From: Deltaproteobacteria bacterium
Lineage (GTDB): Bacteria; Myxococcota; XYA12-FULL-58-9
Assembly: GCA_016218825.1 (NCBI GenBank)
Contig: JACRCV010000056.1
Coordinates: 160,416-224,415 of the forward strand
Direction of reading: 5' to 3'
DNA: 64,000 nucleotides
The notes under the pieces are model-generated. The model ran no database searches. It was not told where the DNA came from and was given only the letters and a program-made list of their open reading frames with translations. The position numbers were made by a program, and so were the translations under genes. Shown piece by piece: positions 11,227-56,410 of the stretch (its first letter is position 1; every line of letters begins with the position of its first letter).

Positions 11227-11338
11227 CTCGCCCTCCGGCTCCGGTCGCCTCGAGCCAACCAGCTTTGGCCACCGCCGGCAAGCGCCTCGGCTTGCAATCG
11301 TCAGGCGCAGTCGGTATCGAAAGCTCGAGAGGTCACCC

Positions 11339-36787: not shown

Positions 36788-38287
36788 TCAGGCGCCGAGC
36801 GACCGGGGCTCGGCGTGCACCGCGACCCGGGTGAGCTCCGGCACCGCGGCGCGCAACGCCGCCTCCAGCCGGTCGGTGATCGCGTGCGCCTCGTCCATCG
36901 GGGTCTCGGCGGCGAGGAAGCAGTGACACGAGAGGTAGATGCCGGTCGCGGTGCGCGCGAACATCAGGTCATGGACCGCCGCGTCACCGACGACCCTGCG
37001 AGACACCGCCTCCACCTTGGAGGCCAGCGCCGCGCGCGTCCCGGCGTCGATCTCCCCCGAGACCTCCGCCTCGTCTTGGGCGAGCTCGAGGTGAATGTCG
37101 ACGCGGGAGAGCTCGGGCACGTCCCGGCGTACGCGCCTCTCGATCCGATCGGCGATCGCGTGACCTTCGCCGAGCGCCATCCGCCGCGGCAGCTCGATGT
37201 GCAGGTCGGCGTGACCCGCCGGCCCGTCTCTGCGCGCCGTGATGTCGTGCGCCTGGATGCCCTCGGAGGCGACGGCGATCGCGATGCGGTCGTGCAACGA
37301 CAACGAGCCCTCGACCTCGGCGTTCAACTGCACGGTGATGTGCGCCGCGCCGCCGAGCACCTCGCCGATCCGTCGCCGCACCTCCGCCGCCAGCCGCTCG
37401 CCCTCGGCCACCGGCAGGTTCCGCTGCATGCCGACCTCGACCTCCGCGAAGTATTGGTCGCCCGCCTGCCGCAGGCGAAGCTCCGGCGCCCCGGCGACGC
37501 CCGGCAGACCGGCGAGCGCGGCGCGGATCGCATCGAGCTTTCCGGCCGGGGCGCGATCGAGGAGCATGTCGGCGGCCCGCCTCCCGAGGTTCCACGACAG
37601 CACCAGGACGATGAGCGCCACGATGCTCGCCGCGATCGGATCGGCGAGCGTCAGCCACGCGACCCCGGACGTCCGGGCGACGACCACACCCACGAGCCCG
37701 ACGATGACGACGGCCGACGACGCGATGTCGGTCGAGAAATGCAGCGCGTCGGCCTCGAGCGCCTGGCTGTTGCTCATCCGCGCCACCCGCGCCAGATCGC
37801 GGGAGCGCACCAGATCGATCACGATCGAGGCGCCCATCACCGCGAAGGCGTACCCGCTCGGCTCCACCTCCGGGCCCTGGCCCATGAAGCGCTTGCCCGC
37901 CTCGTAGAGGATCCACACCGAGGTCGCGGCGAGCAGCAAGCTCTCGACGAGCGCCGAGAGGTTCTCGATCTTGCCGTGACCGTACTGATGCTCGGCGTCG
38001 GGCGGCCGCCACGAGCTCCGGACCGCGAACAAGGTGACCGCGGCCGCGCCAAAATCGAGCGCCGAGTGCGCCGCCTCGGCCAGCAGACCCAACGACCCGG
38101 TCGCGAGGCCGGCGATGAGCTTGATCGTCGTCAGGAAACCACCGGCGAGAACGCTCGCCAGCGCGGCGCGGATCTTCTCGCGGATGAGAAGCCGCCGCTC
38201 CCCGTCGATCGTCGGAACCGTGGTGTTCGACACAGGGCCCCCGCTCTCGTTGTCCGGCCGTTGTACCAGAGCGCGGAGCCGAGGCAA
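36788..38287 (-). CDS. Cation diffusion facilitator (CDF) metal efflux transporter with extended/duplicated C-terminal cytoplasmic domain
   Basis: TM domain with HSALDFG and HFSTD metal-site motifs, then two successive CTD-like regions. Start not verified. Confidence 0.75.
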   Translation of the reverse strand: MPRLRALVQRPDNESGGPVSNTTVPTIDGERRLLIREKIRAALASVLAGGFLTTIKLIAGLATGSLGLLAEAAHSALDFGAAAVTLFAVRSSWRPPDAEHQYGHGKIENLSALVESLLLAATSVWILYEAGKRFMGQGPEVEPSGYAFAVMGASIVIDLVRSRDLARVARMSNSQALEADALHFSTDIASSAVVIVGLVGVVVARTSGVAWLTLADPIAASIVALIVLVLSWNLGRRAADMLLDRAPAGKLDAIRAALAGLPGVAGAPELRLRQAGDQYFAEVEVGMQRNLPVAEGERLAAEVRRRIGEVLGGAAHITVQLNAEVEGSLSLHDRIAIAVASEGIQAHDITARRDGPAGHADLHIELPRRMALGEGHAIADRIERRVRRDVPELSRVDIHLELAQDEAEVSGEIDAGTRAALASKVEAVSRRVVGDAAVHDLMFARTATGIYLSCHCFLAAETPMDEAHAITDRLEAALRAAVPELTRVAVHAEPRSLGA

Positions 38288-38340
38288 GTCAGGCCCCCCC
38301 TGCGCGAGAATTGTTCTCGCCAGACCGTGCGTGATAGGTA

Positions 38341-38784
38341 TTGCAGGTGAGCTCCACTCCCCTGCCCACCGCGCCGGCGTCGGCGCTCGTCTTCGTCGTC
38401 GACGACGAGCAGGGAAACCTCGACCTGGTGGCGCGGACGCTGCGCGCCACCTGCCAGACTCGGACCTTCGTCGAGAGCCGCTCGATGCTGGAGGCGGCCG
38501 AGAAGGACGCCCCCGACCTGGTCCTCGTCGACTTCCGGATGCCGAACACGACCGGCGTCGAGGTCCTGCGGGCCTTGCGGCAGAAAGGGATCAACTGCCC
38601 GGCGCTCTTGGTCACCGGCTTCCCCGACATGGAGGAGGTGAAGAGGGCGCGCGACGAGGGCCTGATCTTTCGGGTGATCACCAAGCCCTGGTCGCCGCCG
38701 GCGCTGGTCGCGAACGTGACGTTGGCCTTGTCGCTGGCACGGCTCGACAAGACCATGGAGACGATCGGCAAGGCCGAACGCTAG
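38341..38784 (+). CDS. Stand-alone response-regulator receiver (CheY-like) protein
   Basis: LVFVVDDE ... LVLVDFRMP ... KP receiver motifs. Start is a TTG at 38341 or a GTG at 38346. Confidence 0.7.
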   Translation: MQVSSTPLPTAPASALVFVVDDEQGNLDLVARTLRATCQTRTFVESRSMLEAAEKDAPDLVLVDFRMPNTTGVEVLRALRQKGINCPALLVTGFPDMEEVKRARDEGLIFRVITKPWSPPALVANVTLALSLARLDKTMETIGKAER

Positions 38785-38802
38785 GAGCACAGCGAGGGAG
38801 CA

Positions 38803-39639
38803 ATGCAAGGCACGCCGAAGCCCGTGATCCTGATCGTCGACGACGAGCCCGACAACCTCGATTTGCTGGAGCGGGCCCTGCGCTCCGAGTACGTCGTCCA
38901 CCGCGCCGCGAGCGGTCACGAAGCCCTGCAGCTCCTCCCCGATCTCCCCGAGTTGAGCATCATCATCACCGACCAGCGGATGCCCGGGCTCGCCGGCACC
39001 GAGATGCTCCGCAAGGCCCGGGTGCGCCGCCCCGAGGCGGTGCGCATCATCCTCACCGGCTACACCGAGCCCGCCGACCTCATCGACGCGATCAACAACT
39101 CCAACGTCTACCGTTACCTCACGAAGCCCTTCCGTCCCGACGAGCTCCGGCTGCTGTTGCGCCGCGCGCTCCGGGTCAACCGCGCCGGCGGCGGCTACAT
39201 GGTCGACGAGGTGACCGGCCTCGCGAACCGCGGCCTGCTGCAACGCCAGTTGGCTCGGGAGCTCGCCCGCGCCGATCGCCTCGCGGCGCCCCTGGTGGTG
39301 GTCGCGATCCGGGTGAACGGCGTCTCCGAGTGCATCGCGGCGCTCGGTGAGCCGACGACCGAGCTGATGATCGCCAACGTCGCCGAGAGCCTCGAGAAGC
39401 AGATCCGCGCCATGGACATCTTGGGCTACTACGACCCTGGGATCTTCCTCGCCATCCTCCCCGGCTGCAGCGAGCCGGAGACCGCGGTGCGGCGGTTGGT
39501 CGAGCTCGCCGAGCAGGCCTCCGACGCCCAGACCATGCGGACGCGAGTGAGCGCGCTCGGCTTCTCCGGGACCTTCGTCAAGGTCGCCGCCAAGGCCGGC
39601 ATCGACGAGGTTCGCCGCGCGCTGCAGCTACCGGACTGA
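38803..39639 (+). CDS. Response regulator: REC + degenerate GGDEF domain
   Basis: REC domain (ILIVDDEPDN ... ITDQRMPG ... TKPF). GGDEF-like fold (EVTGLANRGLL) in which the GG(D/E)EF site is LGYYDPG and the metal-binding Asp positions are lost. Confidence 0.75.
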   Translation: MQGTPKPVILIVDDEPDNLDLLERALRSEYVVHRAASGHEALQLLPDLPELSIIITDQRMPGLAGTEMLRKARVRRPEAVRIILTGYTEPADLIDAINNSNVYRYLTKPFRPDELRLLLRRALRVNRAGGGYMVDEVTGLANRGLLQRQLARELARADRLAAPLVVVAIRVNGVSECIAALGEPTTELMIANVAESLEKQIRAMDILGYYDPGIFLAILPGCSEPETAVRRLVELAEQASDAQTMRTRVSALGFSGTFVKVAAKAGIDEVRRALQLPD

Positions 39640-39664
39640 TCGTCGAGGCGGCCGCGCCGCCGGC

Positions 39665-41014
39665 TCAGGCCACCGCACCGGCGCTCGCGGCCACCGAGTC
39701 GGCCGACGGCAGCCACACCGTGAAGGTGGTGAACTTGCCGACCTCGCTCTTCACCGAGATCTTGCCGTTGTGGGCGTTGACGATCGAGTAGGTGATCGAG
39801 AGCCCGAGCCCGGTCCCCTCACCCACCGGCTTGGTGGTGAAGAACGGGTCGAAGATCTTCAGCTGCAGATCCTCGGGGATGCCGACGCCGTTGTCGGTGA
39901 TCTCGGTCGCGACCCCACCCTGCTCCTCGTGGACCACGATCTCGATCTGCCCCTTCTTCGGGATCGCCTGGACGCCGTTGATCAGGATGTTCATGAACAC
40001 CTGGTTCAAGCGCCCCTCGTTGCCCCACACCTCCGGCGCCGTCGGGTTGTAGTTGCGCACGATCGCGACCCGGTCCTTGGTGTTGTGGCTGATGAGGTTC
40101 AAGGCGCGCTCGATGCACTCCGGCAGCCGCACCCGACCCATGTTGTCGTCCGAGCGGTGACAGACCTGACGCAGATCGCGGACGATGCCGGCGACCCGCT
40201 CGGTGCCGAGCCGAATCGACTTGGTGAGCTTCGCCAGGTCCTCGCGCACGTAGGCCAGGTCGACCTCGGTCTCCACCGCGCGGATCCGGGCCGCCTGCTC
40301 TTCGGGCAGCTCGAGCCCGTCGTGGGCGCCGATGACCTTCAAGAGCGCGGCGACGTGGCTGTCGAGGAAATCGAGGTTGCCGTAGATGAAGTTGATCGGG
40401 TTGTTGATCTCGTGCGCGACGCCGGCGACCAATTTGCCCAGCGACGACAGCTTCTCCGATTGGATCAGCTGCGCCCGGGTCGAGCGCAGCTCGTCCAACG
40501 ACTTCTGCAGATCGGCGGTGCGGGCCTTGACCTGCTCTTCGAGCAGCTCGGCGCGCCGGCGCTCGTTGTCGAGCAGGACCTTGTAGCGATCCTGGATCCG
40601 CGCCTCGGCGGTGACGTCACGGTAGGTCTCGAGCACCGCCCACACGTTCCCCTGCGGGTCGCGCAGCGGGATGGTGCTGACGATCAGGGTCTGCTGGTCG
40701 TCGTCCTTGTTCTTGACCCGCTGGCCGTGGATCTCGTGCACCCGCACCGACCGCCCGTCGTTGAAGGTGCGCGCGCCCAGACAGCCGGAGTCACAGACCT
40801 CCAGGCCATAGAGATCGCGACAACGGGTGCCGGGTCGCTCGGCCTCGCGCGCCAGGCTCTTGGCCCCGAGGCCGACGGTCTCGGCGTAGGCCGCGTTCCA
40901 CGCCAGCGGTTTCAGGTCGCGGGAGACCACGACGGCGGCGTCGGTGATGCCGTCCAGGAGAGAGCGCAGCTGCTGCGGATCGTACTGGGTGGGTGGCGAT
41001 TGCTCGGCTGCCAT
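39665..41014 (-). CDS. PAS-domain sensor histidine kinase (cytoplasmic)
   Basis: PAS-like N-terminus. H-box ([13 protein letters not shown]). N, G1 and G2 boxes ([21 protein letters not shown]). Confidence 0.85.
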
Positions 41015-41027
41015 GGTTGCGAACGCT

Positions 41028-41501
41028 TCAGCCCCTTCTCAGGAAGGCAAAGTAGCTGTCCTCGAGGTCGTCGAACTCCATCTTGCCGGCGCAGTGCGGA
41101 CAGGCGCGGTTCGCGAGGTCCGGGACGCGCCCGGACTCGACGCTGACGACGACGCGCTCGGAGCGGCCACACTTGTCACACATGAACGGCGCCTGCACCG
41201 ACACCACCCGCGCCAGGCCGACGAAGTTGCTGATGGTGTTGATCTGGTTGACCATCGGCGGGCTGCACTGCTCGAGCTTCACCTTCAGGTTGTTCGGCAG
41301 CTTGCGCATGAAGTTGACCCACTCGCGCACGCCGCACGAGTTGACCCGGTTGATGCCGCCGAGGTCCATGCTCACCTGGTTCTTGCCGGCAAGCGCGGTC
41401 ACCAGCGGCGCGAAGTCGGCGTCCTCGTTGACCGGGCCCGACAGCTTGACGCCGGCTTCGGCGCCCTTGGCATCGATGACCCACTCCAATCGACTGCTCA
41501 T
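41028..41501 (-). CDS. STAS-domain (anti-sigma-antagonist-like) protein with C-terminal Cys4 zinc ribbon
   Basis: SpoIIAA-like pattern (VKLSGPVNEDADFAPL ... VSMDLGGINRVNSCGVREWV ... LEQCSPPMVNQINTISNF). Then CDKC-x22-CPHC. Good GGAGAG ribosome-binding site. 32 bp after the kinase gene. Confidence 0.65.
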   Translation of the reverse strand: MSSRLEWVIDAKGAEAGVKLSGPVNEDADFAPLVTALAGKNQVSMDLGGINRVNSCGVREWVNFMRKLPNNLKVKLEQCSPPMVNQINTISNFVGLARVVSVQAPFMCDKCGRSERVVVSVESGRVPDLANRACPHCAGKMEFDDLEDSYFAFLRRG

Positions 41502-41533
41502 CCGTTACTCTCCGTGGTGCTGCCTGGCAGCGG

Positions 41534-43285
41534 TCACGACTTGGAGGGTGACTTGACCTGCTGCAACAGCCGGAAGAACCGCGATGCCTTGTCAGAGTCG
41601 CTCGCCAACAGCGCGTCCACCAGGCTCGAGGCGCCGCACCTTCTGACGAACTCGTTCTCGAAGCGAATGACGTGCGGGAACAGCTTCTTCAACCACGCCG
41701 CGAGGTCGGTCTCGCCCTTGAGCTTGGTCAGCGCGGCGCGCAGATCGGCCTCCATCTTGCCGGCGTCCGAGTACCGGTGCGCCGGATCCTTCTCCAGGCT
41801 CTTCTCGATGATCGGGAACAGGCTGCGCGGGATCTTCGAGGTCCAGCCGGGACGGTCGATCTTGTCGTTGACGATGGCATAGGCGGTCTGGTCGACGGTG
41901 GCGCGGCGGAACGGGTTGGCGCCGGTGAGCATCGAGATCAAGAGCAGCCCCGCGCCCCAGAGATCGGTCTGCGGCGTCGCCTCCTTGCCGAGGAAGATCT
42001 CCGGCGCCATCCAGAACGGGTTGCCGAGGATGGTGTCCTTGTCCCAGTTGCGGCTGCGGACGTAGCCGGCGAGGCCGAAGTCGACGAGCTTGACGACGCC
42101 GTCGAAGCTCACCAGCACGTTGCCCGGCGTGACGTCGCGGTGCACCAACATCCGGCCGCTGGTGTCGGGTATGTGGGCGCGCGCCAACCCCTTGCAGAGG
42201 TCGGCGATGATGGTCGCGACCACCGTGGGCGGCACGGTCGCGCCGTGGCCGACCACCTCGCTCATGATCTCGGTGAGGCTGCGGCCGTGGACGAACTCCA
42301 GCACCATGAAGAACGAGCCCTCGACCCGCTCGAGATCGAGGACGCGGATGACGTTCGGGTGATCCATGCGCGCCGCGAGCTTGGCCTCGTCCAAGAACAG
42401 CCGGATCATGCGGTCGTCGGTGGACAAGTCGGCGCGCACCTGCTTCACCACCGCGAGGCGGCGGAAGCCCATCGCGCCGTGCTGGCGCACCAGGTGCACC
42501 TCCGCCATCCCGCCTTCGCCGAGCTTACAGACGAACTCGTACTTGTTCGCGAAGCGCTTCTTGGCCTCTTCGACCGTCGCCTTGGCCACCGCCGCCTTCT
42601 GGGCCACCGCCGGCTTCTTGGGCGGCGCCGCCTTCGCCGGTGCGGGGCTGCTCGCCGCCACCGCACGCCCGGGCCGCTGCTTGCTCACCGCGGCGATGAA
42701 CTCGCGGTAGTCCTCTTCGCGCTCGGCGATGTCGATCGGCACGCCGCACTCGGCGCACGACGGGCTCGACGCCAGCCAGCCGTCGAACGAGCCGACCGCG
42801 ATCGAATACCAGGTCGCGCGCCGGCAGGTGCCGCAACGTCCGGGGAATAGGATGCTCGCTACCGTGGCGCCGGAGAGCAGCGCCGGGTCGTCGGCGAAGC
42901 GCCGCAACGCCACCGCCGAGCAGTTCACCAGGCTGGTCGCCACGTTCTGGGTCAGCGAGTCCATTGCCGTCCGCCAGCGCTCGAAGCCGCTGGCGTCGAA
43001 GTGCGCGACCCGCTGCATGTCGATGGTCGCCGACGGGCTGTCGGTCGCGGCCACCTGCCGGCCCGGGAACGTGCCGTCGATGATCCCCGCCAGGCGGATG
43101 TTGGTGTTGTTGCCCTCGACCGACTGCCGCGTGGTCAGCCGGACCCCCGGCACTTCGGGCAGCCAGCTGTCGGGGCGCCGCATGGTGCCGAGCACCGCCG
43201 CCGGCGGCGCCGCCGGGGTCACCGAGCGGACGTACTCGAACAGGATCGAGGGATCGTCGTCGAGCTGCGCGTCGCGGCCGCACAC
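41534..43285 (-). CDS. Hanks-type Ser/Thr protein kinase with N-terminal STAS-like + zinc-ribbon module
   Basis: Complete kinase motifs: GEGGMAEV, AVVKQV, HRDVTPGNVLV, DFGLAG, WMAPE. The N-terminal region is paralogous to the 41028..41501 protein (FDASGFERW...CGTC...CAEC). The annotated 5' end is the first start codon (GTG) after an in-frame TAG, so the true N-terminus is uncertain. Confidence 0.75.
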   Translation of the reverse strand: MCGRDAQLDDDPSILFEYVRSVTPAAPPAAVLGTMRRPDSWLPEVPGVRLTTRQSVEGNNTNIRLAGIIDGTFPGRQVAATDSPSATIDMQRVAHFDASGFERWRTAMDSLTQNVATSLVNCSAVALRRFADDPALLSGATVASILFPGRCGTCRRATWYSIAVGSFDGWLASSPSCAECGVPIDIAEREEDYREFIAAVSKQRPGRAVAASSPAPAKAAPPKKPAVAQKAAVAKATVEEAKKRFANKYEFVCKLGEGGMAEVHLVRQHGAMGFRRLAVVKQVRADLSTDDRMIRLFLDEAKLAARMDHPNVIRVLDLERVEGSFFMVLEFVHGRSLTEIMSEVVGHGATVPPTVVATIIADLCKGLARAHIPDTSGRMLVHRDVTPGNVLVSFDGVVKLVDFGLAGYVRSRNWDKDTILGNPFWMAPEIFLGKEATPQTDLWGAGLLLISMLTGANPFRRATVDQTAYAIVNDKIDRPGWTSKIPRSLFPIIEKSLEKDPAHRYSDAGKMEADLRAALTKLKGETDLAAWLKKLFPHVIRFENEFVRRCGASSLVDALLASDSDKASRFFRLLQQVKSPSKS

Positions 43286-43360
43286 CGCGCACTGCCGGAC
43301 CGGGGCCTCCGGCGCGGCGAACGCCGTGTGGTCGAGCTGCGCGTCGAAGAGGTGCGTGGT

Positions 43361-43363
43361 CTA
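43361..43363 (-). other. In-frame TAG codon separating the STAS fragment from the Ser/Thr kinase ORF
   Basis: The track ORFs 43361..43702 and 41534..43285 share a reading frame (43702 minus 43285 is 417, which is 139 codons). The only interruption between them is this stop. Confidence 0.6.
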
Positions 43364-43702
43364 CTCGCCGCAGGAGTCGCACTGGTAGTACGACCGGAAC
43401 GACAACAGCGAACCGCCGCCGTCGAAGCCGACCACCATGTTGAACTGGTCGCTCATGCGCGGCGAGGCACGGACGAAGAACAGCCCCTCCACCTGCTGGC
43501 GGACGGCGCGCACCGCGTTGATCCAATCGCGGACGCCGACCGACGACAGTTGCTTGATGTGGGCGACGTCGAGGACCAGGAACTTGGCGCCGGCGGGCTG
43601 GAGCACCGCGGCGTCAAACGAGTCATCGAGGCGCCCCGACAGGGCGCGGAGGAGGACCGTACCGTCCTTCAACTCACGCAAGACCCGCATGTTGGCTGCC
43701 AT
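43361..43702 (-). CDS. STAS-like domain fragment ending inside a zinc ribbon; in frame with the downstream kinase (probable 5' part of a disrupted or recoded gene)
   Basis: Paralogous to the 41028..41501 protein. It stops after the first CxxC (YYQCDSCGE-TAG). The next 25 in-frame codons plus the kinase ORF continue the ribbon (..RQCAVCGRDAQLDDD..). Confidence 0.5.
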   Translation of the reverse strand: MAANMRVLRELKDGTVLLRALSGRLDDSFDAAVLQPAGAKFLVLDVAHIKQLSSVGVRDWINAVRAVRQQVEGLFFVRASPRMSDQFNMVVGFDGGGSLLSFRSYYQCDSCGE

Positions 43703-43927
43703 TCGACACAGGAGATATCAACTCGAGGAATTCAGTCAAGCGTTTAGCTCCGGCGACCGCGCCGGCCGATTCGTTGACTGCCTCGAAGCGGCCTGCTACT
43801 GATCGTTAGGTTATCCTTACGCAAACTCATATGGCTCCCAGAACGAATCGCCACGACTGTCCGACCCCAGGGAGTGATCGTCAGCTCCTTGCATCCGCAC
43901 GAAAGGCAGACGAAAGACCGGGGCCTC

Positions 43928-45655
43928 ATGACTGACACGATCGCGACGCACCTCCTCCGCGTGGCAAAGAGCCACCCCGACCGCCCCTTCCTCCAAACCC
44001 CAACAGAAACGTTGAGTTACAGCCAGGCGGTGATCCGCGTCGCCGGCACCGCGAAACGCTTCGCCGACCTCGGCTTGCGCCGCGGCGACTTCATTGCCTG
44101 TTACTGCGAGTCACAGGTGGCCGGCCTGTTCTTCAGCCTCGCGTGCGCGACCACCGGTATCCGGCCGGCGCCGCTGTCCCCGGTGTTCTCCGTCGACTAC
44201 CTGATCTCCGGCATCGCCGGCGCCTTGAACGCCCGCGCCATCTTCTGCGACATCGATCGCACGCCGCTGCTCGTCGAGCACCGCTGCCGGCCGCTGTGTT
44301 TCGCGCCGGCGCAGACCGACGTCCCGGGCGCCGAGATCATCGAGGAGACGTTCGACCTGCAGTTCGGCGAAGCGCTGGAGTATCTCGAGCGCGCCAGCCA
44401 CGGGATTGGCCCGGACGACGTCTTCATGATCCTGCCGACCGCCGGCTCCACCGGGACGCCCAAGCTCGTCGTCCGCCGCCACGTCTCGTTCACCCGCTAT
44501 CTGAAGTACCTCGGCCAGGAGCTCGGCCCGGGGCTCGAGGACGGCACCCCGCATCGCTTCCTGATGGTCTCGGCGCTCACCCACGCGTTCGGCTATCACC
44601 TGCTGACGACCGCCATCGGGCTCGGCGCGACCCTGGCGCTTACCTCCAAGATCGACACCGAGGCCGATCTGGTCGAGATCCGTGCCCTCGATCCGACGGT
44701 GCTGCCGTTGTTGCCGCGGGTACAGCGCTCGCTGTTCCGGCAGCACTTCGCCAAGCCCGAGACCGAGCTCGCCACCAAGGCCCAGATGTTCTCGGCGAGC
44801 GCCCGCTTCGTCTGCAGCGCCGGCGGCATCCCGAACTACGATATCCTCAAGTACCTCATGGACCAGGGCCTCGACATCGTCGAGTTCTACGGCTCCACCG
44901 AGGCGTCCTTGATCGCGATCACCAAGCGCGGCACCTGGAAGCCGGGCTGCTCGGGCAAGGTGGTCGACGACGTCGAGGTCAAGCGCGACCCGGACGGCGA
45001 GATCCTGGTGCGCTCCGCGGGCGTCACCCCCGGCTACTTCGGCGACGACGAGGCCACCCGCGCGGTGATCACCAACGACGGCTACTTTCACACCGGCGAC
45101 CACGGCGAGCTGGCGCCCGATCGTTCGCTGTCCATCGTCGGCCGCAAGAAAGACGTCTTCAACACCTCCGAAGGCACCAACATCTTCCCGACCCGCATCG
45201 AGCAGATGATCGAGCTGTTGCCCTGGGTGCACCAGGTCTGCCTGGTCGGCGACGCCCGCCCCTTCTTGACCGCGCTCATCGTCGTCAAGGACGAGGGCAA
45301 CCTGCGAAACCCGCGCGAGTACGGCTTCCTCGAGGCGGCGTCCAACGTCGAGGTCTATCGCCGCGCCGGCTCGGATCTCTCCGACATCAACCTTCGCCTG
45401 GAGCGCATCGAGCACATCGTCCGCTTCGCGCTCTTCGGGCGTGAATTCCCGACCGACATCTACGCCAAGGTGTCGGCGGGTAAGATCCGCCGCGACCGCA
45501 AGGTGTTCAACGAGCGCTTCCGCGCCGTCATCGAGATGCTCTACACCTCGCGGCCACAGCCGATCCCGGATCCGTCGTTCGTGCCCGGCACCGATCGCCG
45601 TCTGCGCATGCGCGGCAAAGATCGCCGCCTCGCGCCTCGCGCCGGCAAGCGCTGA
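43928..45655 (+). CDS. AMP-dependent synthetase/ligase (acyl-CoA synthetase, ANL superfamily)
   Basis: AMP-binding motif (ILPTAGSTGTPKLV) and YGSTE / GDHGEL regions. Start ATG at 43928. Confidence 0.8.
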   Translation: MTDTIATHLLRVAKSHPDRPFLQTPTETLSYSQAVIRVAGTAKRFADLGLRRGDFIACYCESQVAGLFFSLACATTGIRPAPLSPVFSVDYLISGIAGALNARAIFCDIDRTPLLVEHRCRPLCFAPAQTDVPGAEIIEETFDLQFGEALEYLERASHGIGPDDVFMILPTAGSTGTPKLVVRRHVSFTRYLKYLGQELGPGLEDGTPHRFLMVSALTHAFGYHLLTTAIGLGATLALTSKIDTEADLVEIRALDPTVLPLLPRVQRSLFRQHFAKPETELATKAQMFSASARFVCSAGGIPNYDILKYLMDQGLDIVEFYGSTEASLIAITKRGTWKPGCSGKVVDDVEVKRDPDGEILVRSAGVTPGYFGDDEATRAVITNDGYFHTGDHGELAPDRSLSIVGRKKDVFNTSEGTNIFPTRIEQMIELLPWVHQVCLVGDARPFLTALIVVKDEGNLRNPREYGFLEAASNVEVYRRAGSDLSDINLRLERIEHIVRFALFGREFPTDIYAKVSAGKIRRDRKVFNERFRAVIEMLYTSRPQPIPDPSFVPGTDRRLRMRGKDRRLAPRAGKR

Positions 45656-45673
45656 CAAACCCGCGCCCTCCCC

Positions 45674-47128
45674 ATGCTCAGGACATCGTGGCGCAAGATC
45701 GTCCCGGTGCTGGTGCCCACCGTCCTGGCCATCATCCCCGCGCCCACCGGACTGCCGCAGCACGCCTGGTGGTATTTCGCGATCTTCGTCGGCGTCATCG
45801 TCGGCCTGGTGCTCGAGCCGTTGCCGGGTGGCGCCGTGGGCTTCATCGGGGTCACGCTCATCGGGGTGCTGGCGCGCGTCGTGCTCTTCAGCCCCGCACA
45901 GCTCGCGGATCCCGCCTTCCGGGCGACCGCCGAGGCGGTCCGGTTCACGGTGTCGGGTTTCGCCAACACCACGGTCTGGCTGATCTTCACGGCCTTCATC
46001 GTCGCCACCGGCTACGAAAAGACCGGCCTTGGGCGGCGGGTGGCCTTGCTTCTCGTCAAGGCGATGGGGCGACGCACGCTCACCCTGGGATACGCGGTCG
46101 CGCTGGCCGACCTCGCGCTCGCGCCGTTCACGCCCTCCAACACCGCGAGGTCCGGAGGCACGCTGTTTCCGGTGTTGAAGAGCCTGGCGGCTCTCTATGA
46201 GTCCAAACCGAACGACCCCTCCGCCCGTCGGATCGGCGGCTACCTCATGTGGACGGCGATCGCGGCCACGACGGTCACCAGCTCGATGTTCGCGACCGCC
46301 ATGGCGCCCAACCTCCTGGCCCTGGAGATGGCGCAAAAGACGGTCAACGTGACGGTCACCTGGCTCGAGTGGCTCACGGCGATCACGCCGGTTGCGCTCC
46401 TCCTCTTCCTGGCCACTCCCCTGCTCGCGTACCTCCTGTACCCACCGGAGGTGAAGACCGGCGGCGCGGTGCCGCAGTGGGCAGGTCAGGAGCTCGAGCG
46501 GATGGGTCCGTTGAGCGGGCGCGAGCGTACGCTCGGTGGGCTGGTGCTGACGGCGTTGGCGCTGTGGATCTTCGCCGGCGACCTCGTCGATGCCACCGCG
46601 GTCGCGATGGTCGTCGTCGCGCTCATGGTGGTCACCGGCGTCGTCGGTTGGGACGACGTGCTCGGCAATCGCCGGGCGTGGAACACGCTGGTCTGGTTCG
46701 CGACGCTCGTGGCGCTGGCCGACGGTTTGACGCGCGTCGGCTTCATCAAGTGGTTTGCCGAGACCGTGGGCGGCGCGCTGCGTGGCCTCGCGCCGATGAC
46801 CGCCACGGTGGCCACGGTGCTGGTGTTCTTCTTGTTGCACTACCTGTTTGCGAGCGTCACCGCGCACGTGACCGCCCTGATGCCGGTGATGCTCGTGGTG
46901 AGCACCGCCATCCCCGGCGTCGATCCCGCCACGGTCACGCTGTCGCTGGTCGCGACTCTCGGGATCATGGGTGTGCTGACACCGTATGCGACCGGCCCGA
47001 GCCCGATCTACTTTGGAAGCGGCTACATCAGGGCCTCGGACTATTGGAGGCTCGGTGCGATTTTTGGCGCGATCTACATCGTCGTGCTCACTTGCGTCGG
47101 TATCCCTTGGATCGTGATGACCCGCTAG
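45674..47128 (+). CDS. DASS-family (divalent anion:Na+ symporter / CitT-like) anion permease
   Basis: 484 aa, polytopic. Hairpin-loop SNT and related motifs (PFTPSNTARSGG). Confidence 0.75.
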   Translation: MLRTSWRKIVPVLVPTVLAIIPAPTGLPQHAWWYFAIFVGVIVGLVLEPLPGGAVGFIGVTLIGVLARVVLFSPAQLADPAFRATAEAVRFTVSGFANTTVWLIFTAFIVATGYEKTGLGRRVALLLVKAMGRRTLTLGYAVALADLALAPFTPSNTARSGGTLFPVLKSLAALYESKPNDPSARRIGGYLMWTAIAATTVTSSMFATAMAPNLLALEMAQKTVNVTVTWLEWLTAITPVALLLFLATPLLAYLLYPPEVKTGGAVPQWAGQELERMGPLSGRERTLGGLVLTALALWIFAGDLVDATAVAMVVVALMVVTGVVGWDDVLGNRRAWNTLVWFATLVALADGLTRVGFIKWFAETVGGALRGLAPMTATVATVLVFFLLHYLFASVTAHVTALMPVMLVVSTAIPGVDPATVTLSLVATLGIMGVLTPYATGPSPIYFGSGYIRASDYWRLGAIFGAIYIVVLTCVGIPWIVMTR

Positions 47129-47208
47129 CCATCGCCGCACGCCCCTATGGGGCTGGCCTTGGCTTCGCATTCGAGGTAGGCGGATGCCTTGCCTCAAGGA
47201 GACTTGCC

Positions 47209-47499
47209 ATGATCAAGGTGTTGCGTGAGCGGTACTGCAGTGCGGCCAACGAGAAGACGGTCCGCGAGATCGAGAAGGCCACGCGGGAACAAGCCAAGAA
47301 GCAGCCCGGCTGGGTGTCGGGGGAAACGCTGCGAGACAAGGCGGACCCCACCCACACCGTGATCGTGGCCACCTGGGAGTCGGAGAAGGCGTTCGCGGCC
47401 TGGGAGAGCTCGGAGGGCCGCAAGAAGGTCATGAAGGATATCGCCAAGCTCATGGCAAAGCCCGAGAAGGTCACCGTCTTCGAGCTCCTGTCGAAGTAG
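47209..47499 (+). CDS. ABM (antibiotic-biosynthesis-monooxygenase-like) ferredoxin-fold protein
   Basis: 96 aa with AAGGAG ribosome-binding site. ABM-like pattern (..HTVIVATWESEKAFAAW..). Confidence 0.6.
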   Translation: MIKVLRERYCSAANEKTVREIEKATREQAKKQPGWVSGETLRDKADPTHTVIVATWESEKAFAAWESSEGRKKVMKDIAKLMAKPEKVTVFELLSK

Positions 47500-47689
47500 G
47501 CCGCGGCCGCGCCGCCGCGCACACGCTGCACGGGCGTCGGCGGGGCGCCGGCGTGGAGGTGTCGTCCACCCCTTCCGGGCCGGTGGCCGTGTCAAGGACG
47601 GCAGGCCGAGCGGGTCCGCGGGATCTCGCTTTCTTCGCCGACGTTGGGCATATTCTACGACCTGCATCGGGGCGTGAGGAGCCTGGCTC

Positions 47690-48877
47690 ATGAAGCGACG
47701 GGATTTCGTCCTCGGTATGTTGGGGCTCTCTGGGACCTCCCTGGCGCTGACCAAGTGGCTCCTGGCTTCACGCCGGGTCACCCCCGCGGAGTGGCTCGGC
47801 TCGCCCTACCCGCTGGTCAAGGTGCCGGGCGCCGGCGAGATGTATCAACTGTGGGATCGCCCGCCCCTCTACGAAACGCCGGTGTCGAAGCTCGTGGGCA
47901 CGAAGAACCCGCCCTTCACCGACACTGATCACTACTACATTCGTTGGCGGGAGGCCGACCTCAAGCCGCTGGACCCGGATGCCTTCAGGCTCACCATCAC
48001 CGGCGAGGGTGTGCCCAAGCCGGTGACGCTCACGCTCGCCGACATCAAGAACTTCCCCAAGATCGAGCGCGGCGCGGTTGGCATGTGCGGCGCCGCCGGC
48101 TTCGGCCTCATTCGCCCCCGACGACCGGCGCCACCGTTCACCAAGGGCGATCTCTCGTGTGCGCTCTGGGGAGGCGCCAGCTTGCGGGCCATTCTCGAGG
48201 ACGTCGGCGCTCGACCGGAGTTTGGAGTGCTGACCGCCAAGTCGGCGGTGAAGATCATCTCCAACAAGCACCCCACCTACATCAGATCCGTCCGCATGGT
48301 GGACGCCACCGGAGCGAACACCCTGCTGGCCTACGAGATGAACGGCGAGGCGCTGCCCTTCTGGCATGGTGCGCCCCTGCGACTGGTCATCCCCGGGGTC
48401 ATAGGACCGAACTGGGTCAAGCAGCTGGTAGAGCTGGAGGTGCGACGGACCCTGGCGCCCCGAAGTTGGTACCAGAAGGCCACCGGCTTCGGCCCCGATG
48501 TTCCCAAGATGGGCGTCAAGACGTTCTCGCTGGTCCTCTCGCCGCTCGACGGCGAGCGGGTGCCGGTGGGTGCGCCGGTGGACGTCATGGGCATCGCCTT
48601 CGACTCGGGGCAGGGGATCGACCGCGTGGACGTCAGCGCCGACAACGGTTGGAGCTGGCAGGGCGCGGAGCTCGGTCCCCAGCCCGACGCCTACGTGTGG
48701 CGGAAATGGAAGACGTCGTTCACCCCCACGACGGCCGGTCGAATCAACGTCATGTCGCGGGCGACCTCCACGAACGGCGAGACCCAGCCGCTCGACGCCT
48801 GGCCGAACATCCAACACGAAGGCGGGCACCGTAACAACTCGAGCCGGACCTTCGCGACGACGTTCGAGGTCGTGTGA
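47690..48877 (+). CDS. Tat-exported sulfite-oxidase-family molybdopterin oxidoreductase (SorA/YedY-like)
   Basis: Twin-arginine signal (MKRRDFVLG). Molybdopterin-binding Cys region (AVGMCGAAGFG). C-terminal dimerisation domain. GAGGAG ribosome-binding site. Confidence 0.8.
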   Translation: MKRRDFVLGMLGLSGTSLALTKWLLASRRVTPAEWLGSPYPLVKVPGAGEMYQLWDRPPLYETPVSKLVGTKNPPFTDTDHYYIRWREADLKPLDPDAFRLTITGEGVPKPVTLTLADIKNFPKIERGAVGMCGAAGFGLIRPRRPAPPFTKGDLSCALWGGASLRAILEDVGARPEFGVLTAKSAVKIISNKHPTYIRSVRMVDATGANTLLAYEMNGEALPFWHGAPLRLVIPGVIGPNWVKQLVELEVRRTLAPRSWYQKATGFGPDVPKMGVKTFSLVLSPLDGERVPVGAPVDVMGIAFDSGQGIDRVDVSADNGWSWQGAELGPQPDAYVWRKWKTSFTPTTAGRINVMSRATSTNGETQPLDAWPNIQHEGGHRNNSSRTFATTFEVV

Positions 48878-50088
48878 TGGGCGCCCAATCTCCTGCTGCG
48901 CGTCGCCCTCTGGTCGCCGCGGTCCTGGTCGGATCGCTGGGCATCGCCGGGGGATGTCGGGAGTCGGATCGCCCGGTCTCCGGCCCGCCCCCCTACGTCC
49001 GTGAGCTCAAGCCCGGAGAAGGGAAGCTGCATGTGGAGAGCGCGTGCCTGTCGTGCCACAACGCGCGCACCATCATCACCCTGGAGGGCATGACCAAAGA
49101 CTGGTGGCGGTTCGACGTCTGCAAGATGCGCCACACCTTCGGCGCCGAAGTAAGCGACGTCGATACCGCCAAGATCATCAAGTACCTCGAGGACAACTAC
49201 AGCTGGCCGGATCCGGTGGAGGACCGCGAGCGCACCGGGACCGACGTGATCGAGCGTGTGTGTTACCAGACCCCCGAATCGGTGCTCTACCACGCCCCTG
49301 AGGACGTCTATCTGGTCTCGAATATCAACGGCAGCCCGCTCGGCGTCGACGGCGACGGCTTCATCAGCAAGATCGCCGCCGACGGCACCGCCCTCGATCT
49401 CACGTGGATCAGCGGCGAGCGCGAAGGCACGGTCCTCAACGCCCCGAAGGGCATGGCGATCCAGGGTTCGACCCTCTACGTCGCCGACCTCACCGTCGTG
49501 CGCAAGTTCGACCTCCGGACCGGTGGGCCGACGGGCAACATCCCCATTCCCGGAAGCACCTTCCTCAATGACGTTTGTGAGGGGCCGAACGGTAGTGTCT
49601 ACGTCACCGACACCGGGTTGAGCGGAAACACCGAGGGTTTCGTGAACACCCGGACCGACGCGGTGTACCGCATCGAAGCAGACGACCGTTACCGGGCGAT
49701 CGCAACCGGGACCGTCCTCGGGCAACCCAACGGCTGCGTCGCGGTGCCCGGCGGCCTGGTGGTGGTCACCTTTGGGTCAGGAGAGGTCTATCGGCTCGAC
49801 GACGACGGCACCCGCCACCCGATGCCACGACCGCCGCGCGGCGTCCTCGACGGCGTCGTCGCGCTCGGTGACGGCCGCTTGGTGATCTCCAGCTTCGGTG
49901 GCCAGGCGATCTACATCCTCCGCCACGACCAGACCTACGAAGCGCTGGCGCCGCTCGTCGACAACCCCGCCGACATTGCCTGGGACCAGAAACGCGGCCG
50001 CATCGTGGTGCCGCAGTTCATGAAGAGCCGGGTGGTCTACTTCAACCTCGACGGCGCGACCGCTGGAGCGACCCCGACGGGACCGTAG
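48877..50088 (+). CDS. Mono-haem cytochrome c (SorB-like) fused to a beta-propeller (SMP-30/NHL-like) domain; lipoprotein
   Basis: Start overlaps the sorA-like stop (GTGATGG). Lipobox (LGIAGGC). CLSCHN haem-binding site. C-terminal repeated propeller-like blades. Confidence 0.7.
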   Translation: MGAQSPAARRPLVAAVLVGSLGIAGGCRESDRPVSGPPPYVRELKPGEGKLHVESACLSCHNARTIITLEGMTKDWWRFDVCKMRHTFGAEVSDVDTAKIIKYLEDNYSWPDPVEDRERTGTDVIERVCYQTPESVLYHAPEDVYLVSNINGSPLGVDGDGFISKIAADGTALDLTWISGEREGTVLNAPKGMAIQGSTLYVADLTVVRKFDLRTGGPTGNIPIPGSTFLNDVCEGPNGSVYVTDTGLSGNTEGFVNTRTDAVYRIEADDRYRAIATGTVLGQPNGCVAVPGGLVVVTFGSGEVYRLDDDGTRHPMPRPPRGVLDGVVALGDGRLVISSFGGQAIYILRHDQTYEALAPLVDNPADIAWDQKRGRIVVPQFMKSRVVYFNLDGATAGATPTGP

Positions 50089-50090
50089 CC

Positions 50091-52286
50091 CTACTCCACC
50101 ACATCGACCAAGAGCATGGTCATGTCGTCTTCCTGCGGCGTGTCCTCGGGCCGCAGGCGATCGACTTGATCCATGATGTGCTTCGCGGCGTCCTCGATGC
50201 CCATGCCCGCGGTCTCGAGCAGGAAGGCGCGCAGCGCTCTAATGCCGGTGGCCTTGGTCTTGCGGATCGCCTCGAACTCGTACAACCCGTCGGTGAACAT
50301 GAAGATCCGGGTGCCCGGCAGCTTCGGGATCTCGAGGTGGCCGATCTGGAGCTCGGGCGCCAACGCCAGCGGCGTACCGCGAACCGCCCTGCCCTGCACC
50401 CGCCGGTCCGGGTCCAACACCAGGAGCATCGGCGCGCCGCCGTTCCACCAGTGGATGACGCTCTCGTCGTGCGGCATGTCGAGCAGCGACATCGTCATGT
50501 GGTAGTGACCCTGGGCGGTCACCAGCAGCTCGTCGTGCATCTCTTTGAGCTGCTCTTCGACCGACAGCTCCGGCATCATCCGCCGCAGAATGCGGTAGAC
50601 GCTCTCGGTCGCCGCGGTCACCATCGCCGGCCCCGGGCCGTGGCCGGAGACGTCGCCGACCGCGACCCGCACCGAGCCCTGGTGGTCGTCGAACCACCAC
50701 CAGTCACCGCCGCACTCGTCGGCGGCGCGGCAGAAGCCATGGATGACGAGCCCCTCGGCCCGCATGGTCTTGTGCTTGGGCTGGAACATCTCCTGGACGG
50801 CGGCGATCAGCGCCATGTCCTTCTTGTAGGCGGCCTCGAGGCTCTTCTTGCCGGCCTCGACCAGCTGGGTCATCGCGAGCTTCTCCTGGATGATCGCCTG
50901 CAGCGTGTTCTGCAGATCGTCATAGGAGCGCGCCAGGTTGGTCAGGGTGACGTTGCCGTGGCCCATGAGCTCGCGGTAGGTCACCTGCGGCGGCACCGGC
51001 AGGCCGCAGGTCTTCGCGACCCGCGCGACGCCCTCGGGGATCGCGGTGAACAGCTGCTCGGCGCCGTCGCGAGCGATCCCCAGCAAGTCGCAGGCCTTGA
51101 ACGCCGCTTGCCGGGTTTGCTCGACGTCGCCGGGCTCGAACATCGCCGCGATCCGCTCCACCACCCACGCCACGAGCGCCAGCGGCTCGCCGCCCGGAGG
51201 CTCATCGTCGTGGTGATGCAGAACGGCCTCGACGACGCCGTGTGGCACGTCCCAGTCGGTCGCGAGCTCCATCACCCGGACGCCGTGCTCGACTTCATTC
51301 GCCGCCCGTTCGCGGATCGGGCGCGACTTCGACGGGCTCAGGCCGATCTCCAGCGCCCCGGTCGGGTCGTGCATCGCCCGCGCCAACAGGCCGGCATCCA
51401 TCAGGAAGCCGGCGGCGACCGCGAAGTTCAGGTCGACGTCCCGCACCCAGTTGCACACCAACGACGCGGTGACCGCGCGCCGCAGCACCAGCGGCAACAG
51501 GTACTCGACCGCGGGGTTGGTCTCTTTGACGAGGTCGAGCACCGAGAGCGCCATGGTGACGGCCTCGACGCCGTCGATCCCGAGCTCCTCGATCACCGCG
51601 TCCGGGTCCTTGGTGACGTCGGTCACCGAGAACAACCGGCTCGCGGTCAACGCCCGGAAACGATTCTCGAAAAGCTTGTCACCCTTCACCAGCTGCTTCT
51701 GCTCGTTGAGCTCGGCGGTGTCGTGACGCGCCGGCTCCGCCGCCGCCCCCGGCTTGCGCTTCACCGCGAGGTTGCTGAGCGCGGTGGACAGCGCCGCGAA
51801 GTTGACCGGCTTCGGCAGCATCAGATCGCCGCCCACCGCCTTGAGCTCGTCCTCGGAGTAGCGCGCGCCGTAGCCGGTCACGAAGATGATCGGCAGCTTG
51901 TCGAGCAGCGGCACCGCCTTGGCGTACTTGGGCTTGCGCGCCTCCGGCAACGTGCCGCGCGCCAGCTTCGTGAGCTCGATGCCGTCCATGTGCGAGCCCT
52001 TGAGCTCGATGTCCATCAACACCGCCGCGAGCTCCTTGCCGCTCTCGGCGAGGATGGCGCAGGCCTCCTGGTCGTTCTTCGCCCACTGCATCGCGAAGCG
52101 CCGCTTCAACACCAGCTCGGTGACCTCCCAGTTCTCGGGCACGTCCTCGACGTAGAGGATCCGTTGGCGCTCGGTCTGTGGCAGCGGCGCCGCCAACGCC
52201 CGGCGCGCCCCGGCGCCGGCGACCGACGCCGGATCGCTCGCGTCCGGGGTGCTCTTGCTGACACTCCATTTGTGGAGCTTCTTCAT
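50091..52286 (-). CDS. Response regulator with REC + HDOD-like + PP2C (SpoIIE/RsbU-type) phosphatase domains
   Basis: REC domain (ILYVEDVPEN ... LMDIELKG). PP2C motifs (GGDWWWF ... VGDVSGHGPGPAM ... FTDGLYE). Confidence 0.8.
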   Translation of the reverse strand: MKKLHKWSVSKSTPDASDPASVAGAGARRALAAPLPQTERQRILYVEDVPENWEVTELVLKRRFAMQWAKNDQEACAILAESGKELAAVLMDIELKGSHMDGIELTKLARGTLPEARKPKYAKAVPLLDKLPIIFVTGYGARYSEDELKAVGGDLMLPKPVNFAALSTALSNLAVKRKPGAAAEPARHDTAELNEQKQLVKGDKLFENRFRALTASRLFSVTDVTKDPDAVIEELGIDGVEAVTMALSVLDLVKETNPAVEYLLPLVLRRAVTASLVCNWVRDVDLNFAVAAGFLMDAGLLARAMHDPTGALEIGLSPSKSRPIRERAANEVEHGVRVMELATDWDVPHGVVEAVLHHHDDEPPGGEPLALVAWVVERIAAMFEPGDVEQTRQAAFKACDLLGIARDGAEQLFTAIPEGVARVAKTCGLPVPPQVTYRELMGHGNVTLTNLARSYDDLQNTLQAIIQEKLAMTQLVEAGKKSLEAAYKKDMALIAAVQEMFQPKHKTMRAEGLVIHGFCRAADECGGDWWWFDDHQGSVRVAVGDVSGHGPGPAMVTAATESVYRILRRMMPELSVEEQLKEMHDELLVTAQGHYHMTMSLLDMPHDESVIHWWNGGAPMLLVLDPDRRVQGRAVRGTPLALAPELQIGHLEIPKLPGTRIFMFTDGLYEFEAIRKTKATGIRALRAFLLETAGMGIEDAAKHIMDQVDRLRPEDTPQEDDMTMLLVDVVE

Positions 52287-52345
52287 TTATGCTCCCGGCG
52301 CCCCGCCAAGGTATCGCGAGGCTCTCGCCTGCTCCGCTGGAGTCG

Positions 52346-53347
52346 TCACATCTCGGGACCGCGCGGCGCCTCGAGCTGTTCGCGACGCTCGAACTCCTGC
52401 ACCACGCGCTGGTAGGCCGAGTCCTCCTGCATGCACAAGGCGCTGTAGGCCACGGTCCAGTTGTGCATGAAATACTTCAGGTCGGCGGCCAGATCCGCGC
52501 GCAGCTCGGCGAGCGTCGGGCTCTCGAACTCGACGCCGACGCCGGCGCGCACCTTGCGCATGCCGGTGTTGCGCGGCGGATCACCGAAGAACGCCCGCCA
52601 GCTGCGCTTGACGGCCGACCCGAAGCCGGTCCCAGGCTCCTGACCCCGGACCTCGATCTCGTAGGGCATGACGTACTCGGTGGCCTGCAGCCCCGAGCCT
52701 TGATCGTTCCGGAACACGCCGCGCTCCCGCCCCTGCTCGTGCGCCTGCTTCAGCGCCGCGCGGAACCGCGCCGAGCCGCCGACGTCGGTGTCGACGTTCG
52801 GGAAGAACTCCATCCGGACTCCCGCCCGCGCCGCGAGCGCCGCCATGCTCTTGTTCATCACCGCCGCCAAGTCCTGGGTGGTGGAGACCTTCTGCAGACA
52901 GACCGCGAAGCCCTCCATCTGCCGTCCCAAGGCGATCAGCATCTCGATGTCCAGAGACGCCCGCAGCCCGGCGCGCACCAAGGTGTGGAGGCGATCCGGC
53001 GTCGCCTCCGACTTGGCGAGGTAGTAGTCGATGTCGTAGTCGTTGAGGATCTTCTCTTCCGGCGCGACGCCCGGCTGCCCGGTGCGCAACACCAGGCGCA
53101 GTGACCGGTCGCAGTGGGCGCGGATGTGGCGACACAGATCGAGACCGGCGTGATCCGTCTCCATCACCACGTCGATGAACGCGACGTTGAAGCTCTTGGT
53201 GGCCAGGATCTGTTGCGCTTCTTTGCCGCTCGCGGCGCTGGTGATCGTGAACTTCTTCTGCCGCCAGCTGCGGTGCTTGAGCGCCAGCTGCGTGATCTGG
53301 TGCACGTCCGGTTCGTCGTCAACTACGAGGATCTGCCAGTTTTCCAT
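52346..53347 (-). CDS. Response-regulator-like protein: N-terminal REC + uncharacterised ~200-aa domain (no output kinase)
   Basis: REC domain (NWQILVVDDEPD ... FIDVVMETDHAGLDLC). The C-terminal domain is paralogous to the middle domain of the next gene (..YFMHNWTVAYSALCMQE..). Start ATG at 53347. Confidence 0.7.
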   Translation of the reverse strand: MENWQILVVDDEPDVHQITQLALKHRSWRQKKFTITSAASGKEAQQILATKSFNVAFIDVVMETDHAGLDLCRHIRAHCDRSLRLVLRTGQPGVAPEEKILNDYDIDYYLAKSEATPDRLHTLVRAGLRASLDIEMLIALGRQMEGFAVCLQKVSTTQDLAAVMNKSMAALAARAGVRMEFFPNVDTDVGGSARFRAALKQAHEQGRERGVFRNDQGSGLQATEYVMPYEIEVRGQEPGTGFGSAVKRSWRAFFGDPPRNTGMRKVRAGVGVEFESPTLAELRADLAADLKYFMHNWTVAYSALCMQEDSAYQRVVQEFERREQLEAPRGPEM

Positions 53348-53360
53348 GGTCGCTCCAAAG

Positions 53361-55127: not shown

Positions 55128-55201
55128 CCACCGGTTTCACGTCTTGAGGCAACAACAACGATTCTCGACCGCAACCAAGCTAGCCGACCCGCCGGGTGGA
55201 T

Positions 55202-56410
55202 TCAAGACCGGAGTGGAGCCGATCCTTTGCGCCGCCGTGCCGCCAACCGGGCCGTCAACACCAGGCACAAAACACAGGGAACCAGCAACACCCCGTTCAG
55301 GAGCTCGAAGCCCAACGCCTCGAACATGCCGGCGGTGGTGAGCACCGCGGCGGCCGACACCCCGAAGGCGACGGAGTCGAAGAAGCCCTGAGCCCGCCCC
55401 CGTTCCGCGGCGGTGTGGGTCTCGACGAGGAGGCGCGACGACGCCAAGAAGAGAATGCTCCACCCCACCCCGATCAGGATCATGCCCACCCAGAGGACGG
55501 CGATCGACGCCCCCATGAGCAGCACCACGAGGGCGGCGGTGAGGAGCCCGGCGCCGACGACCATCATCCTCAAGATCCCGAAGCGTTGGAGAAGCGCGCC
55601 GGTCACGAACGACGGCGCGAACATCGCGAACATCCGCCACATCACTATAAAGGAGATGTCTTTGAAGGGAAATCCGAGCTTCTTCATCGCCAGCGACCCG
55701 CCGATCATCGGCACCTGCAGCACGAGCCACGAGACCGCGCCGCCCACGGCGGCGACGACGTAAGCCTCCTGCCTGACGATCACTCCCAGCGGCCGACCGC
55801 CCGCCTTTCCCTCTTCGCTGCCGGCAGCGGGAATGCGCAACCCCCCCAAGAGCGGGATGGTGAGGGCGGTACACACGGCGGTGGCGGCGTAGCAGCCGCT
55901 GTACATGATGGGGTCGAAGGTAGCCCGCGTGAGGTTGGCGAGCGCCGAGCCGGCAAAAGGGGCCACGACCCCTCCGGCCAGAACCAAGGACATCGCCTTG
56001 CTCTTGAACAGCGGCTTCGCGGCGTCCACGGCGGCAAAACGGTACTTCTGCGCGAACGCCAGATAGGTCCCCACCGTCGCGTTGCCCAGCATCAGCACCG
56101 CGAAGCTCCGCCAGAAGATCGCGCCCGCGATCAGCGCCGCTCCGAGGGTGCCGATGGCGGCCCCGGTCATGAAGCCGCGCCGTCGGCCGAGCCGCTGCAT
56201 CAGGTTCGAGGCCGGCATCGAGGTGAAGGCGTTGAACAGCACCGTGAGGCCGTTCGGGATCGTGGCCAGCCAGACCGCCGGCGCCAGCTCGACGCCGACC
56301 AGCGGTCCGGTGCTCCACATGACGGTGTTGCTCGTCATCATGATCGCTTGGCAGAGCGCGAGCACGAGAACGTTGCGCTTCTGGTGCTGGAAGATGTCGC
56401 TCGGTTGCAT
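55202..56410 (-). CDS. MFS transporter
   Basis: 402 aa with about 12 TM helices and a conserved MFS loop motif (RLGRRRGF). Confidence 0.75.
   Translation of the reverse strand: MQPSDIFQHQKRNVLVLALCQAIMMTSNTVMWSTGPLVGVELAPAVWLATIPNGLTVLFNAFTSMPASNLMQRLGRRRGFMTGAAIGTLGAALIAGAIFWRSFAVLMLGNATVGTYLAFAQKYRFAAVDAAKPLFKSKAMSLVLAGGVVAPFAGSALANLTRATFDPIMYSGCYAATAVCTALTIPLLGGLRIPAAGSEEGKAGGRPLGVIVRQEAYVVAAVGGAVSWLVLQVPMIGGSLAMKKLGFPFKDISFIVMWRMFAMFAPSFVTGALLQRFGILRMMVVGAGLLTAALVVLLMGASIAVLWVGMILIGVGWSILFLASSRLLVETHTAAERGRAQGFFDSVAFGVSAAAVLTTAGMFEALGFELLNGVLLVPCVLCLVLTARLAARRRKGSAPLRS

Follow-up and report, generated by a model that had tools for sequence, protein, structure and literature searches.

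An in-frame TAG in a tandem STAS-ribbon Ser/Thr kinase gene of a metagenome-assembled deltaproteobacterial genome: very probably a consensus error or an unfixed nonsense allele

STAS-ribbon modules and the kinase to which they are fused

STAS is the fold of anti-sigma-factor antagonists, among which SpoIIAA and RsbV (PF01740/PF13466) are the described proteins with which the modules discussed here can be compared, and PknB is the corresponding point of reference for the kinase that follows them. In the 64-kb stretch of DNA analysed here (hereafter the window), a gene at 41534..43702 on the minus strand, reconstructed as 722 codons plus a TGA stop by reading through an in-frame TAG at codon 114, encodes two consecutive units of a STAS domain with a four-cysteine ribbon and then a Hanks-type Ser/Thr kinase. 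This arrangement agrees with the STAS-STAS-kinase architecture proposed in an earlier note on the same DNA, as judged from matches to the STAS fold and from a PF00069 domain. In each module the STAS fold covers residues about 5-108, with matches to 4hyl, 1til and 6m36, and the loop 'D-L-x-x-V-x-x-I-S-S-x-G' can be recognised. For the STAS core of module 1 (43379..43690, minus strand), the assignment draws on Foldseek, on hhalign and on a profile search of the PDB: the structural model matches 4hyl with an E-value of 1.2e-4 and a target-normalised TM-score (TMt) of 0.64, and also matches SpoIIAA and RsbV; hhalign pairs the module with SpoIIAA at a probability of 91%; and the module profile finds 4hyl at 1.6e-4. 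Matches of the same profile to C2H2 zinc fingers in the PDB were rejected, the spacing of the CxxC pairs alone having been matched. At the level of family models, the STAS match in the window protein (residues 23-89) scores 18.3 bits, below the PF01740 gathering threshold of 22.6, and an orthologue, P0002, stands just above that threshold at 23.3 bits. No Pfam zinc-ribbon family reaches its cut-off for the read-through protein, and neither Pfam nor NCBIfam holds a model for the STAS-ribbon module, which draws sub-threshold STAS matches only.

Unlike SpoIIAA and RsbV, the STAS core carries an added four-cysteine ribbon and two short helices, and the resulting module is tandemly duplicated and fused to a Hanks kinase. 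The ribbon of module 1 (C108-x2-C111 ... C138-x2-C141; 43280..43381, minus strand) is the element that the TAG interrupts, at residue 114; module 2 (residues about 189-340; 42683..43138, minus strand), delimited by alignment, likewise comprises a STAS core and a ribbon (C290-x2-C293 ... C316-x2-C319). When module 1 is read through and aligned with module 2 and with a single-module protein of 157 residues encoded next to the kinase gene, both CxxC pairs are invariant across the three modules, so the alignment of the interrupted ribbon with the intact ribbon of its paralogue, as originally claimed, holds. All eight ribbon cysteines are present in the read-through protein, and C290, C316 and C319 of module 2 are nearly invariant in the homologue alignment. 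A full-length AlphaFold2 model, made with X at residue 114, has a pLDDT of 89.6 (96.3 for module 1 alone) and is confident through the stop site; it gives module 2 the same order of secondary-structure elements as module 1, and it places beta-strands at residues 101-108, 116-120 and 144-147 of the module 1 ribbon region with pLDDT above 90. In this model, the last STAS strand is predicted to lead straight into the first CxxC, and residue 114 would lie in the turn just past that knuckle.

A further difference from SpoIIAA concerns phosphorylation. The position of the SpoIIAA phospho-acceptor Ser58, before the conserved Gly, is occupied by Val55 here and by Phe in the family consensus in the hhalign alignment, and classical partner-switching phosphorylation therefore cannot be assumed for these modules. 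The family consensus at module 1 residues 53-56 (window about 43535-43546, minus strand) reads S-S-F-G. Its invariant Ser54 was considered as a SpoIIAA-type phospho-acceptor and set aside on the alignment, in which it pairs with Ser57 of SpoIIAA.

The kinase domain (residues 388-645; 41768..42541, minus strand) scores 138.2 bits against PF00069, for which the cut-off is 31.7. It retains all of its catalytic motifs, namely K420, H521-R-D523, D541-F-G543 and the APE motif at P567-E568; in the homologue alignment K420, H521, F542, G543, P567 and E568 are invariant and R522, D523 and D541 nearly so. Its best fold matches are PknB structures (TMt about 0.89, about 30% identity), and in fold, PF00069 score and catalytic motifs it is thus like the PknB-type kinases. 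It departs from them in that PASTA repeats are absent, a Pfam search returns no further domain, the accessory domains are the N-terminal tandem STAS-ribbon modules, and the score against NF033483 (196) falls far under the NCBIfam equivalog cut-off of 450. A literature search returned nothing relevant on kinases with STAS and zinc-ribbon modules.

Position of the stop codon and homologues across the site

The TAG at codon 114 (43361..43363, minus strand) is in frame with both flanking open reading frames, confirming the codon and the frame given in the earlier note, which had described the stop as splitting the first module from the kinase between the two CxxC pairs. Upstream lies an N-terminal fragment of 113 codons (43364..43702, minus strand; ending ...SYYQCDSCGE) that holds the STAS core of module 1 and the first CxxC. 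Downstream, the frame stays open from 43360 to the TGA at 41536-41534. The first 25 codons of this stretch (43286..43360, minus strand), homologous with the part of the ribbon between its two knuckles, offer no ATG, GTG or TTG, and they end in G or C at the third position in 25 of 25 cases in a window of roughly 68% G+C, so the gap still looks coding. The first possible restart is GTG 43285, which, as had been noted before, falls inside the second CxxC; it encodes Val140 of C138-A-V-C141, and no Shine-Dalgarno sequence stands at a usable distance from it.

In the NCBI annotation, the gene is represented by two coding sequences. MBI5509303.1 (109 aa, 'hypothetical protein HY903_11175') begins at Met5 (window 43690), and MBI5509302.1 (583 aa; 41534..43285, minus strand; P0001 in our searches), titled 'MAG: serine/threonine protein kinase [Deltaproteobacteria bacterium]', begins at the GTG of Val140. 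A general pattern of in-frame stops was not seen in the window. Other pairs of neighbouring same-frame open reading frames were considered as further broken genes and rejected, each consisting of separate, complete genes. One such pair comprises a DEAD/Helicase_C protein whose C-terminal domain is an MrfA zinc-binding (MZB) domain (8267-11281, minus strand) and, in the same frame after its TGA, an RNase_H_2-superfamily protein (6920-8257, minus strand); together they resemble the MrfA/MrfB helicase-exonuclease repair pair, as two complete genes of which neither is broken.

Homologues were collected with phmmer, using residues 1-345 of the read-through protein as the query, which returned representatives of 1,670 clusters (50% identity) at E<=1e-3, of which 550 remain at 1e-10. 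The best matches, P0002 (714 aa) and P0003 (733 aa), each align in one stretch over query residues about 6-327 (E about 1e-91); they are 47% identical in the N-terminal part used as query and about 50% identical when whole proteins are compared, and the best homologues continuous across the site are 714-753 aa long. These single-stretch matches across residue 114 support the earlier statement that homologous sequence continues beyond the stop and, together with the retained cysteines, indicate that the N-terminus and the kinase were not juxtaposed by chance. In the best 148 of about 1,670 homologue clusters the site is uninterrupted without exception, every one of them carrying a sense residue where the window has TAG (E61, D29, A9, T8, S8 and Q6 in the aligned column); at the DNA level, the aligned codon of P0003 is GAG. 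In the alignment of these 148 homologues with the window protein (149 rows), C108, C111 and C138 occur in every row and C141 in all but two (147).

The possibility raised beforehand that orthologues would prove to be two separate genes is refuted, the homologues being single polypeptides, and no orthologous locus with the same split was found among the 1,670 clusters, of which the best 148 were aligned at this column. The ENA contig that encodes P0002, L002, has in addition genes orthologous to those of the 157-aa protein (52% identity) and of a PAS histidine kinase (55%), a partial synteny that makes P0002 a credible, and intact, orthologue. A word-index protein search with the read-through N-terminus matched only the locus itself, and scans of genome and metagenome contig collections with back-translated peptides found no relatives. 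More broadly, the tandem STAS plus four-cysteine ribbon module defines a large family in which its fusion partners are Hanks kinases (on either side of the module), PDZ domains and FIST_N/FIST_C arrays: among the 149 listed matches to the full-length query, not counting P0005, the N-terminal fragment of this locus, the order is module-kinase in 62 and kinase-module in 15, and 72 have other partners, PDZ and FIST domains among them.

Origin of the TAG

An independent view of the locus comes from Logan, a per-run assembly of the Sequence Read Archive, in which the relevant contig was reached via the neighbouring 157-aa protein. In Logan, exact proteins of the deposited contig are matched only in run SRR12113407. 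Its contig SRR12113407_832841 (3,186 bp; L003), which corresponds to window 43583..40398, differs from the window by a single mismatch in 3,186 bp: position 221 of the contig is C where window 43363, read on the minus strand, is T. Codon 114 is accordingly CAG (Gln) rather than TAG, and an uninterrupted open reading frame of 682 aa, open at the contig start, runs through it to the normal end of the kinase. Window 43559-57856 (14,298 bp) and window 37743-39850 (2,108 bp) are covered by two additional contigs from that run with 0 mismatches, so that over about 19.6 kb the sole disagreement between the two assemblies is the base that creates the stop. The contig ends 220 nt upstream of the variant site and hence lacks the first 40 codons of the gene, which are supplied by the adjacent L004/L006 (from window 43559), with an overlap of 25 nt; on L004, Prodigal calls the N-terminal 48 aa with its start at ATG 43702. 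The overlap, at window 43559-43583, falls short of k-1 = 30, the length that unitigs of 31-mers would share if linked, and the variant base is about 200 nt from the break between L003 and L004. For each accession, Logan constructs unitigs of 31-mers, drops k-mers seen once and applies a SPAdes-like graph simplification (PMC12424806); given that once-seen k-mers are dropped, the C allele is backed by at least 2 reads at every 31-mer covering the site. When genome and metagenome contig collections were scanned for the exact DNA around the stop, leaving the variable base as N, no other copy was recovered.

From these results we conclude that 41534..43702 is very probably one gene for a 722-residue kinase, in which the TAG represents a C-to-T difference with two about equally likely origins: an error in the consensus of the metagenome-assembled genome (MAG), or a nonsense allele that arose very recently, has not been fixed and coexists with the intact one. 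A CAG-to-TAG change is a C-to-T transition, a very common kind of spontaneous change, and by computation about 2-3% of random substitutions in the kinase open reading frame would create a stop. The CAG in the assembly of SRR12113407 indicates that the stop is not fixed in the sequenced population, and the identity of the flanking 3.2 kb, with all motifs intact, implies that the event that produced the TAG, if real, is extremely young. A consensus error is a possible origin in that errors meet no selection and this stop was noticed precisely for being a stop. An assembler does not normally emit a base without read support, however, and reads bearing the T therefore probably exist, in which case the TAG may be a genuine allele rather than an error. 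Wherever the T allele exists, translation would be expected to stop after a 113-residue STAS fragment with half a ribbon, and the kinase downstream would depend on inefficient reinitiation. Among known situations, the locus most resembles a single-base consensus discrepancy in a MAG or an unfixed nonsense SNP: a CAG-to-TAG change puts a stop into a conserved gene that is intact elsewhere, the sense codon stands in a second assembly, and the annotation pipeline has split the gene into two coding sequences, with nothing material that differs.

It is unlikely that the gene is a fixed, recently formed pseudogene in the strain behind the MAG, one in which module 1 is ruined and the kinase is absent or weakly expressed, the CAG having come from a co-occurring sister strain or from an error of its own. 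An otherwise identical CAG allele of 3.2 kb is present in the sole public run that matches the organism's exact proteins, and the 19.6 kb compared show neither a second lesion nor relaxed constraint nor any other difference, whereas further changes would normally accumulate in a fixed pseudogene; on the other side, the TAG does stand in the deposited consensus, it requires only a common type of transition, and two genes are annotated by NCBI. Of the marks of a decaying pseudogene, disruption of a reading frame that is intact in homologues is present, and further lesions or relaxed constraint were not seen in the ribbon cysteines, the kinase motifs, the gap codons or the 3,186 bp. A literature search turned up no link between SRR12113407 and the MAG, which may derive from another sample, and the TAG could then be fixed there. 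It is quite unlikely, in turn, that the T allele is real and is held at appreciable frequency beside the intact allele, as a natural loss-of-function or 'fission' polymorphism. If it were, a free STAS fragment of SpoIIAA size and, by weak reinitiation, an N-terminally shortened kinase would be produced, and the allele would be kept because inactivating or rewiring the kinase is advantageous in part of the population; low-level UAG readthrough yielding both products from one allele is still less likely.

Two further explanations treat the TAG as functional, and both are highly improbable. Programmed readthrough or recoding of the UAG, by a suppressor tRNA or by pyrrolysine insertion, would set the ratio of short STAS fragment to full-length kinase, and it would account for the conserved in-frame coding sequence past the stop, which offers no restart for 25 codons, and for a truncated product about the size of a free STAS protein. 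An in-frame UAG followed by homologous coding sequence is indeed what the locus shares with such systems. It differs from them in that the UAG is not conserved in relatives (0 of the 148 best homologues have a stop at the codon, where most have Glu or Asp, and the closest available DNA has GAG), in that a sense allele, CAG, occurs in the same population, and in that TAG is an ordinary terminator here, ending 16 of the 38 coding-like open reading frames in the window (21 TGA, 1 TAA). Additionally, no tRNA gene lies in the 64-kb window, and the downstream readthrough context that the earlier note had suggested looking for did not materialise: the 136 nt at 43240-43375 (minus strand) fold no better than shuffled sequences (MFE -56.1; mean of the shuffles -59.8; z = +0.95), which leaves no RNA structure past the stop. 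Adaptive gene fission would instead make a free STAS protein and a shorter kinase started at GTG 43285, both functional. The cut, though, falls inside a predicted metal site of four cysteines, so that neither product has more than half a ribbon; the proposed start codon is that of Val140, within an invariant CxxC; the sole GGAGG upstream lies 20 nt away, too far to serve as a Shine-Dalgarno sequence; no homologue is split at the site (best 148 of about 1,670); and the free-standing paralogues keep a complete ribbon. That single-module STAS-ribbon proteins exist as genes of their own, the 157-aa neighbour for example, and that NCBI calls two coding sequences are the points in favour of fission.

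The earlier note had offered sequencing error, recent nonsense mutation and programmed readthrough as explanations, and had named a sense codon in the reads as the observation that would overturn its reading. A sense codon is what is seen, at the level of an assembly; with CAG present in Logan, error and recent mutation both stand, the latter only in unfixed form, and readthrough is left unsupported, there being no need for it and nothing in its favour. The comparison of orthologous loci recommended there, sense codon versus TAG, points the same way. The TAG is, very probably, an ordinary annotation and assembly issue or an unfixed nonsense SNP.

Signalling neighbourhood and implications for the family

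The kinase gene lies in a dense signalling neighbourhood that includes two response regulators, one of them with a GGDEF domain. The 157-aa paralogue, with a single STAS domain and an intact ribbon (MBI5509301.1; 41028..41501, minus strand), is encoded immediately upstream of a PAS-HisKA-HATPase histidine kinase (39665-41014, minus strand). Orthologues of these two genes adjoin on the contig of P0002 (16053-16520 and 16544-17941), about 6 kb from P0002 itself, and this recurrence of the arrangement in sequence suggests that the STAS-ribbon protein and the PAS histidine kinase form a conserved functional unit. Farther off, 50091-52286 (minus strand) encodes a protein of 731 aa that combines receiver, HDOD and SpoIIE (PP2C-type phosphatase) domains, and a hybrid histidine kinase (52346-55127) and additional response regulators belong to the same block. 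SpoIIE-type phosphatases act on STAS proteins in partner-switching systems, and the SpoIIE-type protein may be linked to the STAS-ribbon proteins encoded 7-9 kb away. Elsewhere in the window, a cation-efflux (CDF) transporter of 499 aa (36788-38287, minus strand) has three separate ZT_dimer matches, which point to a repeated C-terminal domain.

The immediate consequence of these findings is a corrected gene model, in which MBI5509303.1 and MBI5509302.1 are pieces of one 722-residue protein and the GTG start of MBI5509302.1 is an artefact; neither entry should be taken as evidence for recoding or for gene fission. More generally, suspicious stops in MAGs can be checked quickly and independently against the Logan contigs of a single run. 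As for the protein, the tandem STAS-ribbon modules most likely serve the kinase as regulatory domains or for the binding of partners. They belong to a STAS-ribbon family that is large and for which Pfam and NCBIfam lack a dedicated model, a point of modest interest in itself.
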